Shown here one piece after another: positions 45,001 to 54,000 of a stretch of 64,000 nucleotides of DNA; position 1 is the first letter of the stretch; every line of letters begins with the position of its first letter. A program made the position numbers. Source of the DNA: a plasmid; the NCBI RefSeq assembly GCF_054482595.1, contig NZ_JBTHVH010000004.1; one strand, given 5' to 3'.

Positions 45001-48000
45001 GGAGCCAGTCCACCAACATGGACTGTTCTTCCGTCATAAAGCTTCGTGGATTCAGGGTGCGATCAACGGCACCGGTACGGAATGGCTCCAGGGCCAGCTC
45101 GTCCACCATTTTACGACGGGTCTGAAAGAGCGTGTCGTCAAGGTCGCTCAGAACAACGGGTTTATTCATAGGTAACAATCTCCACGACGGGCGCAACCTC
45201 AGCCAGGGCTTTAAGAAGCTGCGTGTCAATACTTTCTGCGGGTGTCTCAGTACACACAAGAATACGGTCAAACTGCTGGTGGGCGACGTTATAGACAAAA
45301 TTGGGGATGCCCAGCCCGTAGTTATCCGTAAAGGAAATGGCGGACTCAATGGCATAACCAACGGCGATAGGGGAGCGGGTGGTCGAACCATAAAGTGCCT
45401 GTGCTCCGGCAGCTTCGAGCCGTTCAGCAAGCAGGAACGGCTCCCAGACGAATTCCCCGGTCCCGAGAACCAGAATACGTTCCCCCTTGCGGACGGAGAC
45501 CTCATGGCCGAGATCGGCCGCAGGTGCGAGCATCCCCAGTCGACCCCAGGACTGTTTTCCCAGGATGTCCCATTCTCCGCGTGAAGTTACGTTGACTTTC
45601 GGCATGTCCGGGACAGGTGCATCAGGTAATGGGGTCCATCCCCACTGACCGCTTACAAGCGAAACCGAAGTGACGGGCAAGGATGTGCGCTCCGACAGGG
45701 CGTTGCTACTCCAGTCGGTAAGCGTAACGGCGATAACCTGTTCAATATGTTGAAGCTTGCCGGTATTACGCAGGGCAGAAAGCAGGTTAATAAAGGTATT
45801 ACCGGTGGTTGCCTCGTCATCAATCAAAACCAGCGTTCGTGCGTTGGTAACACGACGTCTTTTCTCTTCATCATCTGGCAGATAGATCAGATGATCGGTG
45901 GCGTGGCTGTGTTCTTCCTTGAACTCGCAAAGTAACGTGCCATCAACCGGGTGACGGGTAGAGGTCAGATAGACAGATTCACGATGCTGGTGGCGCACTT
46001 CATCAAACACACCGGCCCCTAGCCCAACGGCGGTTTCAGCCATACCGATAAAAAGTACGGGCCCTGCCAGCGTTGCGGGGAACTGGCTGGCAAGCTGTCT
46101 GTAGGCCTGCCGCATGACTGAGGGTGGCACGGGAATGTGCCTGCCGAGTACTTTGCTGACAAACAGAAAGGCGCGTTTCGGGTTACGTCTTTCAGCGATA
46201 TCAAACAGGTCATCGAGCGAAACATCACCCTGGTCGCGGGTTACCTGTATCGTACCGCATGAGAGGGTACGGCGATAAATCATATCTTCGAGGGTATCAG
46301 ACATAAACACGCCTTAATTCAGATGGTTAGAGAGTGATTCCGGGTAAACGATGACATCTGTGATGGATCTCACTGCAACCGGAGAAAAGGTATTTCTGGC
46401 GCTCTGGATCACCGCATCTTCAGACATCAGACCGAGCTTAAAGGCAGCAAACAACCCGGGAAGGTTCACCCCGCTGTGAAGGGTATAACCCACCCCGCCT
46501 GACGGACGCATGTTGGTTTCAAGCAGCACCGGGTTGCCATTCACATCGTTTCGCGTCTGAACATTCACCAGCCCGTCGGCCTTCATAACCCGGGCGCAGT
46601 CACAAGCCAGTTCCCAGGCGCTTCCTTCGTTTACCAGATACTGGATAGCCCCTTCCTTACGGCGTCCCACGGCTGCGAGTATTTCGCCCTTATCCGCGAG
46701 GATATCGACGGAAAATTCCGGGCCTGGCAGGTACGGCATCAAAACAAGGGGTTTAAACGACTCAGAAGCCGATGCTGCTGCAATATACTGTTGCGGACTG
46801 ACCAGACGATGTTCGGGATGATTAAAGACGGCCATGGGCGAAGCACTGTCATCAAAGCGCCAGAATCCCATGCCATAGATACCCGTCACCGGCTTCACGC
46901 ATACCGGGCTGTCCGAGAACGGCGGGGCCGCGAGGTGCGTCTTTAATTCTGCCAGCGTATTCACCCGCCAGGACGGTACGACCGGGAGCCCGTTTTGCTC
47001 CATAAACTGAGCAAAAGTAACTTTTTCGTCAGCCAGAGTTAACCAGTCGACGCCTGTTGCACCGGTAGTAAGGGTGGCTCCGGTCGATTCAATGGCTGAA
47101 CGGTGTTCTTCAAACCACTGGCTGTTACGGCCAGTATGAATATGGTGGATGCCGTAGGTCTGAATGGTTTCCTGAATAAACTGAAGACGTTTTTGAGGAT
47201 CTTCAGGTTCAGTCAAAGAATAATCGGCAACGGAAAGAATTTCATGTCTTTCGTTACGGTGGGAGGCAAATACGGTAATAGCAAAATTATTTTTTTGTGC
47301 AAATGATTTTACCCCCTGAATAATATCTCGCTGGGAGGACAAACCTTCCATAAACCAAATTTTCTTGTTCATTTTTTTTAATTATCCGGAACGCCATGCA
47401 AATTTATGATTGAGAAGTGAGTCTATGAGTGTCTACGCTACATGTCAATCATAATATGATTAATAACTTCAGTGGTTATGGAGTGCGTCAGTGTTTTTTT
47501 AGTACCTTATAACGTATTGATATTTAAATTAAAAATAGAAAAATGAACACCATGAAAAGGATTTATTTTTGTGTTTTTGAAGAAAACTACCAAAATTTCC
47601 CTTGTCAGAGAACTTCATCATGATATGATTTTCTTCGTCAGTTACTAAATATACCTTTGATTGTCTCGGTCATTACCATTTTAAGGAATAAAACATGGTT
47701 TCATTAGTTAAGAACCAGACGGTATCACTCAGCAAAGAATCATCTGCATTAAGCCAGCTTCATTTCGGTCTCGGTTGGGATCCGGTTAAGAAAAAAGGTC
47801 TTCTTGGAGGATTGTTTGGAGGCAACGACTCAATCGATCTCGATGCTGGCTGCGTATTAATGGACAGCACCGGTAAAACAATTGACACCATCTGGTTCCG
47901 CAAACTGGAATCCACCTGCGGCGCTGTTGTGCACAGTGGCGATAACCTGACCGGTGAGGGTGACGGTGACGATGAGGTGATTAAGGTCAACCTCTCCCGA

Positions 48001-51000: not shown

Positions 51001-54000
51001 TACTAATCGAAGAGGTTATTTTATGAGTGTTTCTCTTTCCAAAGGCGGGAACGTCTCCCTGAGTAAAGCAGCTCCGTCAATGAAAAACGTCCTGGTGGGC
51101 CTTGGCTGGGATGCGCGTTCAACAGACGGTCAGGACTTTGACCTGGATGCTTCAGCGTTCCTGCTGGCCTCAAACGGCAAAGTGCGCGGCGATTCAGATT
51201 TCATCTTCTATAACAACCTGACGTCATCTGACGGTTCCGTAACCCATACCGGTGATAACCGTACCGGTGAAGGTGATGGTGATGATGAATCGCTGAAAAT
51301 TAAACTGGACGCCGTCCCGTCTGATGTTGACAAGATCATCTTCGTTGTCACTATCCATGATGCTCAGGCTCGTCGCCAGAGCTTTGGTCAGGTATCCGGT
51401 GCGTTTATTCGCCTGGTCAATGACGATAACCAGACTGAAGTCGCTCGCTACGATCTGACCGAAGATGCGTCCACTGAGACTGCCATGCTGTTCGGCGAGC
51501 TGTATCGCCACAATGGTGAGTGGAAATTCCGCGCAGTGGGCCAGGGTTATGCTGGTGGTCTGGCATCTGTATGTGCTCAGTACGGCATTAACGCGTCCTG
51601 ATCGAAAAGTAACTTTTCACCCGGGGCTGTTAATGCAGCCCTCATTCAACTGTTTGCAGGAGCTAAAAATGGCAGTTTCTCTCGTAAAAGGCGGCAACGT
51701 ATCTCTGACCAAAGAAGCACCAACCATGAATATCGCTATGGTTGGCCTCGGCTGGGATGCCCGTGTAACTGACGGTCAGGCTTTTGACCTGGACGCTTCC
51801 GTGTTCGCAGTAGGCGAAGACGGTAAAGTGCTGTCAGATGCGCATTTCATTTTCTTCAATAACAAAACCAGCCCTGATGGCGCGGTAGAGCACCAGGGCG
51901 ACAACCGTACCGGTGAAGGCGACGGTGACGATGAGCAGGTCAAAATCGATCTGACCAAAGTCTCAGCAGATATCAAAAAACTGGTGTTTGCCGTTACCAT
52001 CTATGATGCAGAAGCGCGTAAACAAAACTTCGGCATGGTGAGCAACAGCTTCATACGCGTTTACAACAACGACAACGGCACGGAAATTGCCCGTTTCGAT
52101 CTGTCTGAAGATGCCTCAACCGAAACCGCTATGGTCTTCGGTGAACTGTATCGTCATGGCGCTGAGTGGAAGTTTAAAGCTGTCGGTCAGGGCTTTGCCG
52201 GTGGCCTGGCGGCTCTTGCCTCCCAGCACGGCGTTAACATCTAAAACAACGCTGAATCATACCCCGGCAATGCCGGGGTTTTTTTTGGTTGCGATCCGCT
52301 TTCAGGAGGGAGTAGTAGAAAGGGGACTGGAAATTTCAGAAAGCAGGTCATGTTAATTCAGACCTGAGCCTTTTAAAGGCAGGAAACGGATTTATCTCTG
52401 GTTGCTGGTTAAAGCCGGTATTCCGTGCCTTTTATCAACAGAATGCCCCTCTGATATATGTTACTTTTGCGGTTTATGAAGGAACGGGATCTGGAACATA
52501 AGATACCCGGTCAATCAAAATTCCAGTTCAACAGGTATAGAAACTTCAGCGTGATGAAATATGGTGTCACACCATATATACGCCTCACCAGAAATCCAGC
52601 GTCCTGAACTAAGCCTGGGGAACATATATAAGCGCTGCGCTTTAAAAATAATCAAAAATCAGGAGAGTTAATGTGAATCTACAATCCGGACAAAACATAC
52701 CGCTTCAGCAATCTGCGATCAGGCTGAATCTTCAGTACCCTGCCAAATCCGGCTTTAAAGGCGAACCCGATACCTGCCTCTTCCTGCTTAATGCTCAGGG
52801 AAAGGTAACCGGCGATTCTGACTTTATCTTTTATAATAATCTGTCTTCTCCTGAAGGGGCAGTAAAGCTCGTTACCGGTTCTCAGCAGTCCAGCATTGAG
52901 ATAGCACTGGATCGTGTTCCGGCGAACGTCAGTAAGATTGCGATCACCGTTGTCATTGATGGTGAAGATACTATCAGTGGGCTCAGTTTATTGAGCATTC
53001 AGGCTCCTGGTATCGCTGATTTTCAGGCTGAGACTCAGGGCCGCAGTGAGAAAGCAATCATCCTGGGTGAAGTATATCGGCACAATGGCGCCTGGAAGCT
53101 TCGTGCGCTCGGGCAGGGTTTCAACGGTGGTCTTGAGCCTCTGGCCATTAGCTTTGGCGTTGATGTCGCACAGCCAGCTCCGCAGCCAGCAAAGCCTGCT
53201 CGTATCAGTCTGGAAAAGAAACTTGAAACCAGATCTCCGCGCCTCGTAAGCCTCGCTAAAAAAGCCTCGGTCAGTCTCACTAAAAATAAACTGGACACCC
53301 TTGAGGCAGCGGTTGCATTTGTACTTGACGCATCCGGCTCAATGAGTGGCCAGTTCAGTAAGGGCAACGTTCAGTCTGTGCTGGACCGCATCGCCGTTCT
53401 TGCCGCCCAGTTCGACGACGACGGTGAAATGGATGTCTGGGGATTTGGAGAGAAGCACAAGAAGTATCCAAACGTCACACTGGACAACCTGGACACATAT
53501 ATTCAGTCCATTCGCGGGTCTGGAAAGCGTTCAGCCTGGGAGAACCTGCCGGGACTTGGTGGGACAAACAATGAGCCCCCTGTGATGGAAGAAATTGTCG
53601 ACTACTTTAAGGACTCGAAAATCCCGGTATATGTTGTATTTATTACCGATGGCGGGATCAGCAAGACCCGGGCGATTAAAGATGCAATCCGGCGTTCTGC
53701 CAACTACCCCATCTTCTGGAAGTTTGTCGGCCTGGGTGGTTCAAGCTACGGTATCCTCAAAAATCTGGATGACTTTACTGACCGCCGGGTTGATAACACC
53801 CACTTCTTTGCCATGGATGATTTCGGTTCGATCAGCGATGAAAAGTTATATGATAATTTACTGGAAGAATTCAGACCGTGGATCGATGAAACAAAAAGGT
53901 TAGGCATCCTGTAATACGCACAGTTTTCGCATGGTTAAAGGAGCTCTACAGCAGCTTAATACTGTAGAGCCTTTGTTCACTGGAAATCGTACAGGGAGGA

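Follow-up and report, generated by a model that had tools for sequence, protein, structure and literature searches.

The tellurite-resistance genes in the window (the whole 64,000-nucleotide stretch of plasmid DNA that was analysed) raise the question of how two back-to-back operons are controlled and, above all, whether terF is transcribed from a promoter of its own, as the original prediction held. Judged by its sequence, 47373-53914 is terZABCDEF, a cluster well known from IncHI2 plasmids for resistance to tellurite, phage and colicins. With RefSeq coordinates mapped to the window, all seven genes lie on the + strand, running from terZ through A, B, C, D and E to F, and in that sequence each encodes the expected domain (TerD; TerD; TerB; TerC; TerD; TerD; TerD plus vWA). 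The predicted gene identities, terZABCDE plus terF, were correct by Pfam, TIGR03718 and RefSeq.

47695..48276, + strand: terZ, single TerD domain, GDN(R/L)TGxGDGDDE-type loop motif kept (Pfam, RefSeq)
48276..49433, + strand: terA, two TerD-fold domains (aa 1-160 and, as modelled, about 190-385)
49456..49911, + strand: terB, Pfam TerB 73.6 bits, start per RefSeq
49934..50974, + strand: terC, integral membrane protein, Pfam TerC, TIGR03718 TerC/Alx 360 bits
51023..51601, + strand: terD, Pfam TerD 294 bits
51669..52244, + strand: terE, Pfam TerD, 66% identity to TerD
52673..53914, + strand: terF, TerD domain (aa 1-161), linker, vWA domain (aa 212-412)

The longest open reading frames of terB and terE (from TTG at 49396 and ATG at 51465, respectively) begin too early, and the RefSeq coordinates were used. 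Genes terZ to terE are tightly packed (gaps of -1 to 67 bp), with the terA start codon overlapping the terZ stop codon. Many IncHI2-type plasmids, from E. coli, Salmonella and Klebsiella, match the ter locus at 100% identity over 7201 bp; 1231 plasmid records cover at least 80% of the ter region, and a matching plasmid has the IncHI transfer genes trhF/U/N/I upstream. This copy is already known, its sequence being the same as in hundreds of deposited plasmids, and it therefore adds nothing new. The cluster phenotype in the literature is resistance to tellurite, phage and pore-forming colicins (PMC12054061).

Upstream and divergent from terZ lie the ATP-grasp, PRTase, HAD, StiP and C-C lyase genes, then terW and terY/terX, which is the R478-type layout; Pfam matches and RefSeq annotation agree with the prediction that terZABCDE faces a biosynthetic operon. 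Six closely packed genes of this operon (41140..47372, - strand; Pfam and RefSeq) are followed by terW and a terminator.

46314-47372, - strand: ATP-grasp gene (ATP-grasp_Ter; Pfam, RefSeq)
45162-46304, - strand: PRTase gene (PRTase_2+TRSP; Pfam, RefSeq)
44396-45169, - strand: HAD-like gene (Pfam, RefSeq)
43315-44394, - strand: StiP+PELOTA gene (Pfam, RefSeq)
42359-43315, - strand: C-C lyase gene (Pfam, RefSeq)
41140-42348, - strand: DUF4236 gene (Pfam, RefSeq)
40655..41122, - strand: terW, putative HTH repressor (RefSeq 'tellurium resistance protein TerW')
40620..40643, - strand: intrinsic terminator directly after terW, closing the leftward operon (10-bp stem, -17.9 kcal/mol, z = -3.76)

terW begins 17 bp past the DUF4236 gene and is the last gene of the seven-gene leftward operon. 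Its product gave weak HTH_11 and WYL-type matches (Pfam; PADLOC gave a weak WYL-type match). TerW controls ter transcription, according to the account of Valkovicova 2011 given in PMC7843439, and the lethality of cloned terZA is relieved by terW (PMC4633105).

The AT-rich gap between the two operons had been predicted to hold divergent promoters, and promoter prediction gives one 10/12 sigma-70-like site in each direction.

47373..47694, no strand: divergent control region between terZ and the leftward operon (322 bp, 29.8% GC)
47420..47448, - strand: predicted leftward sigma-70 promoter, TTGACA-17-TAGACT (10/12)
47602..47629, + strand: predicted terZ promoter, TTGTCA-16-TATGAT with TG extension (10/12)
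47447..47461, no strand: putative TerW operator 1, AATCATAATATGATT, overlapping the upstream edge of the leftward -35 element
47616..47630, no strand: putative TerW operator 2, CATCATGATATGATT, covering the -10 element of the terZ promoter

GC content is 29.8% in the gap vs 46.2% for the window. Two of the three best sigma-70-like sites (10/12) in 15 kb fall in the gap, one facing each operon. Since the sigma-70 scan overall was not enriched over shuffles (16 sites found vs 13.8 expected), the argument for these promoters rests on their position, orientation and conservation. When three lineages were compared, the ends of the control region were invariant and its middle variable, and both predicted promoters fall in the invariant blocks. 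A Klebsiella locus (60-80% identical) keeps the hexamers and spacing of the leftward promoter, and the -10 element and spacing of the terZ promoter.

Each predicted promoter shares bases with one copy of AATCATNNTATGATT, a palindrome previously proposed as the TerW repressor operator of R478 (PMC7843439); the authors of that paper, in discussing Valkovicova 2011, place the R478 sites in the region protected by TerW. Operator 1 is identical to 'terZ1_R478_site_1' and is kept in Klebsiella, and operator 2 matches 'terZ2_R478' (both PMC7843439 supplement). At up to one mismatch the operator motif occurs just twice in 64 kb, both times in the gap (0.23 expected). The palindromic ATCATNNTATGAT sites overlapping the predicted promoters, with terW in cis, mark a candidate TerW-regulated divergent promoter. 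No third TerW site was found before terY1 or terF at up to three mismatches; a 3-mismatch match at 42341 falls at a gene junction and is probably due to chance.

These features suggest a simple regulatory scheme, in which two back-to-back predicted sigma-70 promoters in the 322-bp AT-rich gap would drive terZABCDE rightward and, leftward, the seven-gene operon ending with terW, which would encode a nucleoside-like metabolite pathway. Acting through the AATCATNNTATGATT copy at each promoter, TerW would repress both operons together and, because terW lies in the leftward operon, is proposed to repress itself as well. Simple autoregulation may not be the whole story, and terW may also be served by a promoter of its own, because Pectobacterium terW responds separately to PhoP (PMC7843439). 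Genes terZ to terE would be carried on one mRNA ending mostly at a hairpin and T8 terminator past terE. terF would most likely be transcribed at a lower level, by read-through of this terminator, from a promoter, either weak or dependent on an additional factor, within the conserved 270 bp before the gene, or by both routes. We conclude that the locus is very probably an R478-type ter stress/tellurite-resistance module of an IncHI2 plasmid, with proposed TerW-repressed promoters and low-level terF transcription.

How terF is transcribed depends on the DNA between terE and terF.

52261..52287, + strand: intrinsic terminator after terE, ACCCCGGC-AAT-GCCGGGGT then T8 (folding and shuffles)
52288..52672, + strand: terF upstream region, weak promoter-like sites only
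52559..52577, no strand: perfect 9+1+9 palindrome of 19 bp, ATATGGTGT-C-ACACCATAT (= ATATGGTGTCACACCATAT)
53943..53977, + strand: conserved 9-bp hairpin followed by CTTTGTT, 3' of terF, which may be a weak terminator (folding, conservation)

The clean terminator claimed after terE at 52262-52287 was found as a G+C-rich hairpin followed directly by a U-tract (8-bp stem at 52261-52279 with 7 G-C pairs, 3-nt loop, U8 to 52287). Its folding energy is -19.9 kcal/mol, with 0 of 200 shuffles as good; it is invariant in four lineages, and an equivalent terminator is present in Klebsiella. The GTG start of terF at 52673 lies 385 bp past the T-run and 428 bp past the terE stop, with AGGAG 7 nt upstream. 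The stop-to-stop frame offers no other start codon for terF, and two homologous loci carry ATG at the codon of this GTG. The C-terminal part of the protein is a vWA-TerF-like domain (PF10138, 233.8 bits, aa 212-412) with an intact MIDAS motif (DASGS, of the DxSxS form). Pfam domain parsing and the sequence thus bear out a TerD plus vWA fusion that starts with GTG, 385 bp past the terminator.

Separate promotion of terF, the remaining part of that claim, was not established. On the + strand of the terE-terF gap there is no sigma-70 site of 9/12 or better; the best scores 8/12, roughly chance level, and the terminator-terF distance in Klebsiella is only ~45 nt. None of the small ORFs of the spacer (25-49 aa) has support, and a search for RNA-seq data bearing on terF transcription turned up nothing relevant. 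An Rfam scan of 33000-56000 (E up to 1) found no riboswitch or known sRNA in either gap; two sub-threshold matches were due to chance, one being merely the terE terminator. With 1210 places in 1204 plasmid records, the spacer is present roughly once in each, and the idea that it is a mobile-element remnant was therefore rejected.

It is quite possible that terF is expressed by read-through of the terE terminator only, terZABCDEF being a single operon with an internal attenuator and the 385-bp spacer a lineage-specific, promoterless filler. The Klebsiella arrangement speaks for this: the terminator there lies ~45 nt before the terF ATG, without room for a promoter, and read-through is therefore argued for in that locus. 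In the K. pneumoniae literature terZABCDEF counts as a single operon (PMC6020474), the term terZABCDEF operon is also found in PMC3064760, no good promoter match is present in the spacer, and the spacer RNA has neither significant structure (z = -1.34) nor an Rfam match. However, most transcripts should end at an 8-bp stem with 7 G-C pairs followed by U8, neutral filler should be less conserved than the terF-proximal spacer is, and terF is kept intact where an IS4 insertion parts it from terE.

Several of the same observations count towards terF being a fully independent transcription unit, which is possible but less likely than not. The terE terminator would then stop essentially all terZABCDE transcripts and a candidate promoter in 52288-52672, perhaps under control of the 19-bp palindrome or recognised by an alternative sigma factor, would serve terF. 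Consistent with this, the predicted terminator is strong, the 428-bp gap compares with at most 67 bp elsewhere in the operon, and conservation is 0.84-0.96 over the last ~270 bp of the upstream region vs 0.67-0.72 over the first ~80 bp, just past the terminator. The perfect palindrome, which may be an operator, overlaps a weak -10-like TATGGT, and a candidate sigmaE-like site, GGAACAT-N16-TTAAA at 52619-52646, was picked out by eye. Elsewhere, E. coli O43 has an intact terF behind the IS4 insertion, and in a P. aeruginosa megaplasmid a terF-like gene lies apart from terBCDE, on the other strand. Against independence stand the 8/12 ceiling of the sigma-70 matches and the lack of promoter room in Klebsiella. 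The palindrome, moreover, is not conserved in O157, and a scan across species-representative genomes showed it at no other ter locus. That scan returned three unrelated chance matches (Mycoplasmataceae bacterium, Anaerobacillus) and no regulon lead, and the window itself holds no further copy.

It is unlikely, though worth stating, that the terE terminator and the conserved ~270 bp with ATATGGTGTCACACCATAT form a regulated checkpoint at which a DNA-binding protein or an alternative sigma factor switches TerF on separately from TerZABCDE. If true, a proposed sub-membrane scaffold would no longer be coupled to the remaining Ter machinery. Least probable of all is that terF is a dispensable, decaying appendage with a functionless upstream region: O157:H7 has terF cut to 128 aa, one Enterobacter plasmid has IS66 in its place, and insertions in terF have no effect on resistance phenotypes, tellurite resistance not needing terF (PMC12054061, PMC8123226), but the full-length gene is kept in Klebsiella (68% amino-acid identity) and Pseudomonas (39%), the MIDAS motif is intact, and the copy here is identical across hundreds of plasmids. 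Low-level terF transcription, by read-through, a weak promoter or both, remains our preferred reading.

The original prediction also counted seven TerD copies in 16 kb, TerA contributing two. A six-frame profile scan of all 64 kb found TerD domains only in TerZ, TerA, TerD, TerE, TerF and TerX, the last encoded within a terY-terX-terY operon.

38890..39531, - strand: terX, Pfam TerD 178 bits, RefSeq 'TerD family protein', keeps the GDNRTGAGDGDDE motif

With TerA counted twice, seven TerD-fold domains lie within 38890-53914; the count was right and the span is 15.0 kb. The "striking paralog expansion" does exist, but ter clusters show it as a matter of course and it has been published before. 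The second TerA domain is divergent: against Pfam PF02342 the C-terminal half scored 15.1 bits (E = 0.017), under the gathering threshold of 25.3 bits, in a match that spans profile positions 4-177 of 187. A profile built from diverse TerA C-terminal halves matched TerX (33 bits), TerZ (31), TerE (17) and TerD (17) and no other ORF of the window; among PDB sequences its sole match was the TerD-like protein 3ibz. In the AF2 model of this half (pLDDT 86.8), the top six Foldseek matches in the PDB were TerD or TerD-like (2kxt, 3ibz, 2qz7, 2qng, 9a6r_B; TM 0.55-0.70). Profiles and structure model together indicate that the TerA C-terminal half is a second TerD-fold domain, as predicted, connected to the first by a disordered Pro-rich linker. 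PADLOC defence models gave no match for the Ter proteins.

At the sequence level, TerZ, TerD, TerE and TerX carry the GDN(R/L)TGxGDGDDE loop motif; it is degenerate in the TerA C-terminal half (GDDRTGDVSDGE) and deleted in the TerA N-terminal half and in TerF. In work on K. pneumoniae TerD (2kxt) this loop reportedly binds calcium. The TerA N-domain and the TerD domain of TerF are sister copies, both of which lost the calcium-loop motif.

The R478 cluster, including terW, terXY and the intervening biosynthetic genes, was described by Whelan et al. 1995/1997, as cited in PMC4633105 and PMC12054061. Gene set, order, orientation and divergent operon are alike in IncHI2 R478 and its relatives, both operator palindromes are equal, and nothing of substance differs; intergenic DNA of an IncHI2A plasmid is 91-94% identical to this locus. 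In E. coli O157:H7 (OI-43/48) and other STEC the ter island, which is chromosomal, is 95-99% identical over terZ-terE and has the same terminator, but the terE-terF spacer of O157:H7 is only ~84% identical, the 19-bp palindrome carries two non-compensating changes, and terF is truncated. Large virulence/IncFIB plasmids of K. pneumoniae (pK2044 type) share the terZABCDEF order, the divergent ATP-grasp operon, both TerW-type palindromes, both promoter positions and the terE terminator; they differ in DNA identity (60-80%) and in having ~45 nt rather than 385 bp between terminator and terF. Pectobacterium versatile (PMC7843439) likewise has two palindromic sites between terZ and the divergent operon, with the core ATCATNNTATGAT common to both, but lacks terF, has a third weak site before terY1 that has no counterpart in the window at up to three mismatches, and is reported to be under PhoP control.

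The ter cluster is widespread in IncHI2 multidrug-resistance plasmids, STEC and hypervirulent Klebsiella, and its physiological role is still debated. By-products of the analysis are a window-coordinate map of predicted promoters, proposed TerW operators and terminators, model-based structural confirmation of two TerD-fold domains in TerA, and a concrete question on terF transcription. Downstream of the cluster, homology with other lineages stops at ~54052, 138 bp past terF, near a small ORF of 43 aa rather than 151 aa.

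By sequence, this is a classical ter cluster of the R478 type, as carried by IncHI2 plasmids, and all of the defining features that sequence can check are present. ORF listing with Pfam and NCBIfam scans gave seven genes in one orientation at 47695-53914 (plus strand), with the following products:

TerZ: TerD domain, 158 bits
TerA: TerD domain at residues 24-159, 115 bits
TerB: 73.6 bits
TerC: Pfam TerC and TIGR03718, 360 bits
TerD: 294 bits
TerE: 286 bits
TerF: TerD domain at residues 1-161 and vWA-TerF-like domain at residues 212-412, 234 bits

By megablast, 100% identical copies of 47000-54200 are found on many large plasmids of E. 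coli, E. fergusonii, Salmonella and Klebsiella, and at least 80% of this segment is covered in 1231 plasmid records and 937 E. coli genomes. One plasmid with such a match, pHNTH9F11-1, has IncHI-type transfer genes immediately upstream; between 33000 and ~59667 its only difference from the window is one base, at position 46067 inside the PRTase gene. Collinearity is lost at ~59668, near the part of pHNTH9F11-1 that holds IS26 and a class 1 integron. RefSeq gene coordinates on pHNTH9F11-1 place the true starts of terB and terE at 49456 and 51669, respectively, the longest ORF of each starting too far upstream. The paralog expansion and the linked biosynthetic operon have been published, with proposed roles in ligand sensing for TerB/TerD, at the membrane for TerC, and in a sub-membrane structure for the vWA protein TerF (Anantharaman et al., 2012, summarised in PMC7824862).

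The gap upstream of terZ (47373-47694, 322 bp) has a GC content of 29.8% compared with 46.2% for the whole window. Its other flank is a leftward operon of closely spaced genes encoding ATP-grasp_Ter, PRTase_2+TRSP, a HAD-like phosphatase, StiP+PELOTA, a TIM-barrel C-C lyase, DUF4236 and TerW. The gap had been expected to hold promoters for both operons, and promoter prediction placed a 10/12 site facing each of them. The control elements of this region are:

40620-40643: strong terminator at the end of the leftward operon
47448-47420: predicted leftward promoter, towards the ATP-grasp gene, TTGACA-17-TAGACT, 10/12
47447-47461: putative TerW operator, AATCATAATATGATT, abutting the leftward -35 element
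47602-47629: predicted terZ promoter, towards terZ, TTGTCA-16-TATGAT with TG extension, 10/12
47616-47630: putative TerW operator, CATCATGATATGATT, covering the terZ -10 element

Just three 10/12 sites were detected by the consensus scan in 15 kb, two of them inside the 322-bp gap and correctly oriented. Because the scan as a whole showed no enrichment over shuffles, the argument for these promoters rests on position, orientation and conservation. When the gap was compared with those of an IncHI2A plasmid and an IncFIB Enterobacter plasmid, its promoter-bearing ends were invariant and its middle variable. The much more distantly related Klebsiella locus has the same leftward hexamers and retains the terZ -10 element TATGAT with its 16-nt spacing unchanged.

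The two putative operators are copies of a 13-15-bp palindrome that, within 64 kb, is confined to the gap (chance expectation 0.23). Both were detected independently, before comparison with the supplement of PMC7843439, where exactly AATCATAATATGATT and CATCATGATATGATT are listed for R478 as putative sites of TerW binding; according to the authors of that study, the conserved palindrome falls within the stretch that TerW protected in the work of Valkovicova et al., 2011. TerW would thus repress both divergent operons coordinately, in line with the reported relief by terW of the lethality of cloned terZA (PMC4633105). It would also repress its own synthesis: terW starts 17 bp past the preceding DUF4236 gene and is followed by the strong terminator (40620-41122). 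It thus appears to close the leftward operon, and a TerW-type operator sits in the promoter of that operon. This control scheme, which we infer from the sequence and from literature known at second hand, is not a new proposal. In Pectobacterium a weak site has been reported before terY1, whereas no TerW-type site with three or fewer mismatches was present in the corresponding 462-bp gap here (40193-40654).

The original prediction counted seven TerD-domain copies, with two in TerA, in which Pfam recognises only one. The C-terminal 225 residues of TerA alone gave a sub-threshold TerD match (15.1 bits, E = 0.017, profile positions 4-177 of 187). A TerA profile was built from 68 diverse homologues obtained in a 1.8-billion-protein representative search. 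When all six frames of the window were scanned, its C-half matched TerX (33.7 bits, E = 5e-10), TerZ (31.7), TerE (16.9) and TerD (16.8) and nothing else, and against PDB sequences its sole match was the TerD-like protein 3ibz. The AlphaFold model of full-length TerA (pLDDT 89.6) contains two beta-sandwich domains with a disordered Pro-rich linker (165-190) between them. With the C-half modelled alone (pLDDT 86.8), the top six Foldseek matches comprised the TerD or TerD-homologue structures 2kxt, 3ibz, 2qz7 and 2qng, plus 9a6r_B (probability 1.00, TM 0.55-0.70). These profile and structure matches bear out the second TerD-fold domain in TerA, and the count of seven holds, distributed over six proteins in 15.0 kb.

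Alignment of the seven domains showed that the loop GDN(R/L)TGxGDGDDE, a putative calcium loop, is retained in TerZ, TerD, TerE and TerX and degenerate in the TerA C-domain. The TerA N-domain (48276-48770) and the TerD domain of TerF (52673-53170) are sister copies, mutually closest (47% identity), and have a deletion of this loop in common. The MIDAS motif DASGS of the TerF vWA domain is intact.

Intergenic distances from terZ to terE are -1 to 67 bp, and terE and terF are 428 bp apart. Two elements lie between them:

starting 16 bases past the terE stop: terminator, ACCCCGGC-AAT-GCCGGGGT, then eight T
52559-52577: perfect 9+1+9 palindrome, ATATGGTGT-C-ACACCATAT, 96 bp upstream of terF

The hairpin (-19.9 kcal/mol) folds better than all 200 shuffles and is invariant across four lineages, which bears out the clean terminator predicted after terE. 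The GTG at 52673 is the sole start codon within the stop-to-stop frame of terF, with AGGAG 7 nt 5' of it; at two related loci the start codon is ATG.

Pure read-through of the terE terminator into terF is the explanation to which we give most credence, while holding it short of probable. In K. pneumoniae IncFIB plasmids, whose TerF protein is 68% identical, ~45 nt, RBS included, separate the equivalent terminator from the terF ATG (L006, 6430-6500), compared with 385 bp in the IncHI2 lineage. This short distance argues for read-through to terF in the Klebsiella lineage and counts against a fully independent terF promoter, as do the plus-strand spacer, where no site reached 9/12 (the best four scored 8/12), and the description of terZABCDEF as one operon (PMC6020474). 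Such a promoter, to which we assign a real but somewhat smaller chance, is favoured by spacer conservation, which rises from 0.67-0.72 right after the terminator to 0.84-0.96 across the last 270 bp, and by the palindrome, which lies within the conserved block and overlaps a weak -10-like TATGGT. An IS4 element between terE and an intact terF in E. coli O43, and a terF-like gene on the strand opposite terBCDE in a P. aeruginosa megaplasmid, point the same way. The remaining probability falls to a mixture or something else. The claim that terF is separately promoted is unproven rather than wrong.

The spacer palindrome occurs once in the window and is invariant in three plasmid lineages and E. 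coli O43; in O157, where terF is truncated, it carries two non-compensating changes. A scan of species-representative genomes returned chance matches only. By eye, a candidate sigmaE-like motif, GGAACAT-N16-TTAAA (52619-52646, one mismatch per element), was seen just 5' of the terF RBS. The ~340 bp of extra spacer DNA is lineage-specific; its occurrence about once per plasmid record rules out a repeated mobile element.

Similarity to the IncHI2A E. cloacae and E. coli O43 ter lineages ends at ~54052, 48 bp into a small ORF after terF (54005-54136) that encodes 43 aa in the window compared with 151 aa in those lineages. This breakpoint is a boundary of the ter module in this plasmid lineage, due to recombination or deletion. 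In other hosts the terE-terF junction is naturally disrupted: the IS4 of E. coli O43 is inserted at the terE terminator (L009, 4130-5434), terF is replaced by IS66 in an Enterobacter IncF plasmid (L005, 5706-8015), and in E. coli O157:H7 (L008, 5920-6306) terF is cut to 128 aa, beside a transposase remnant and iha.
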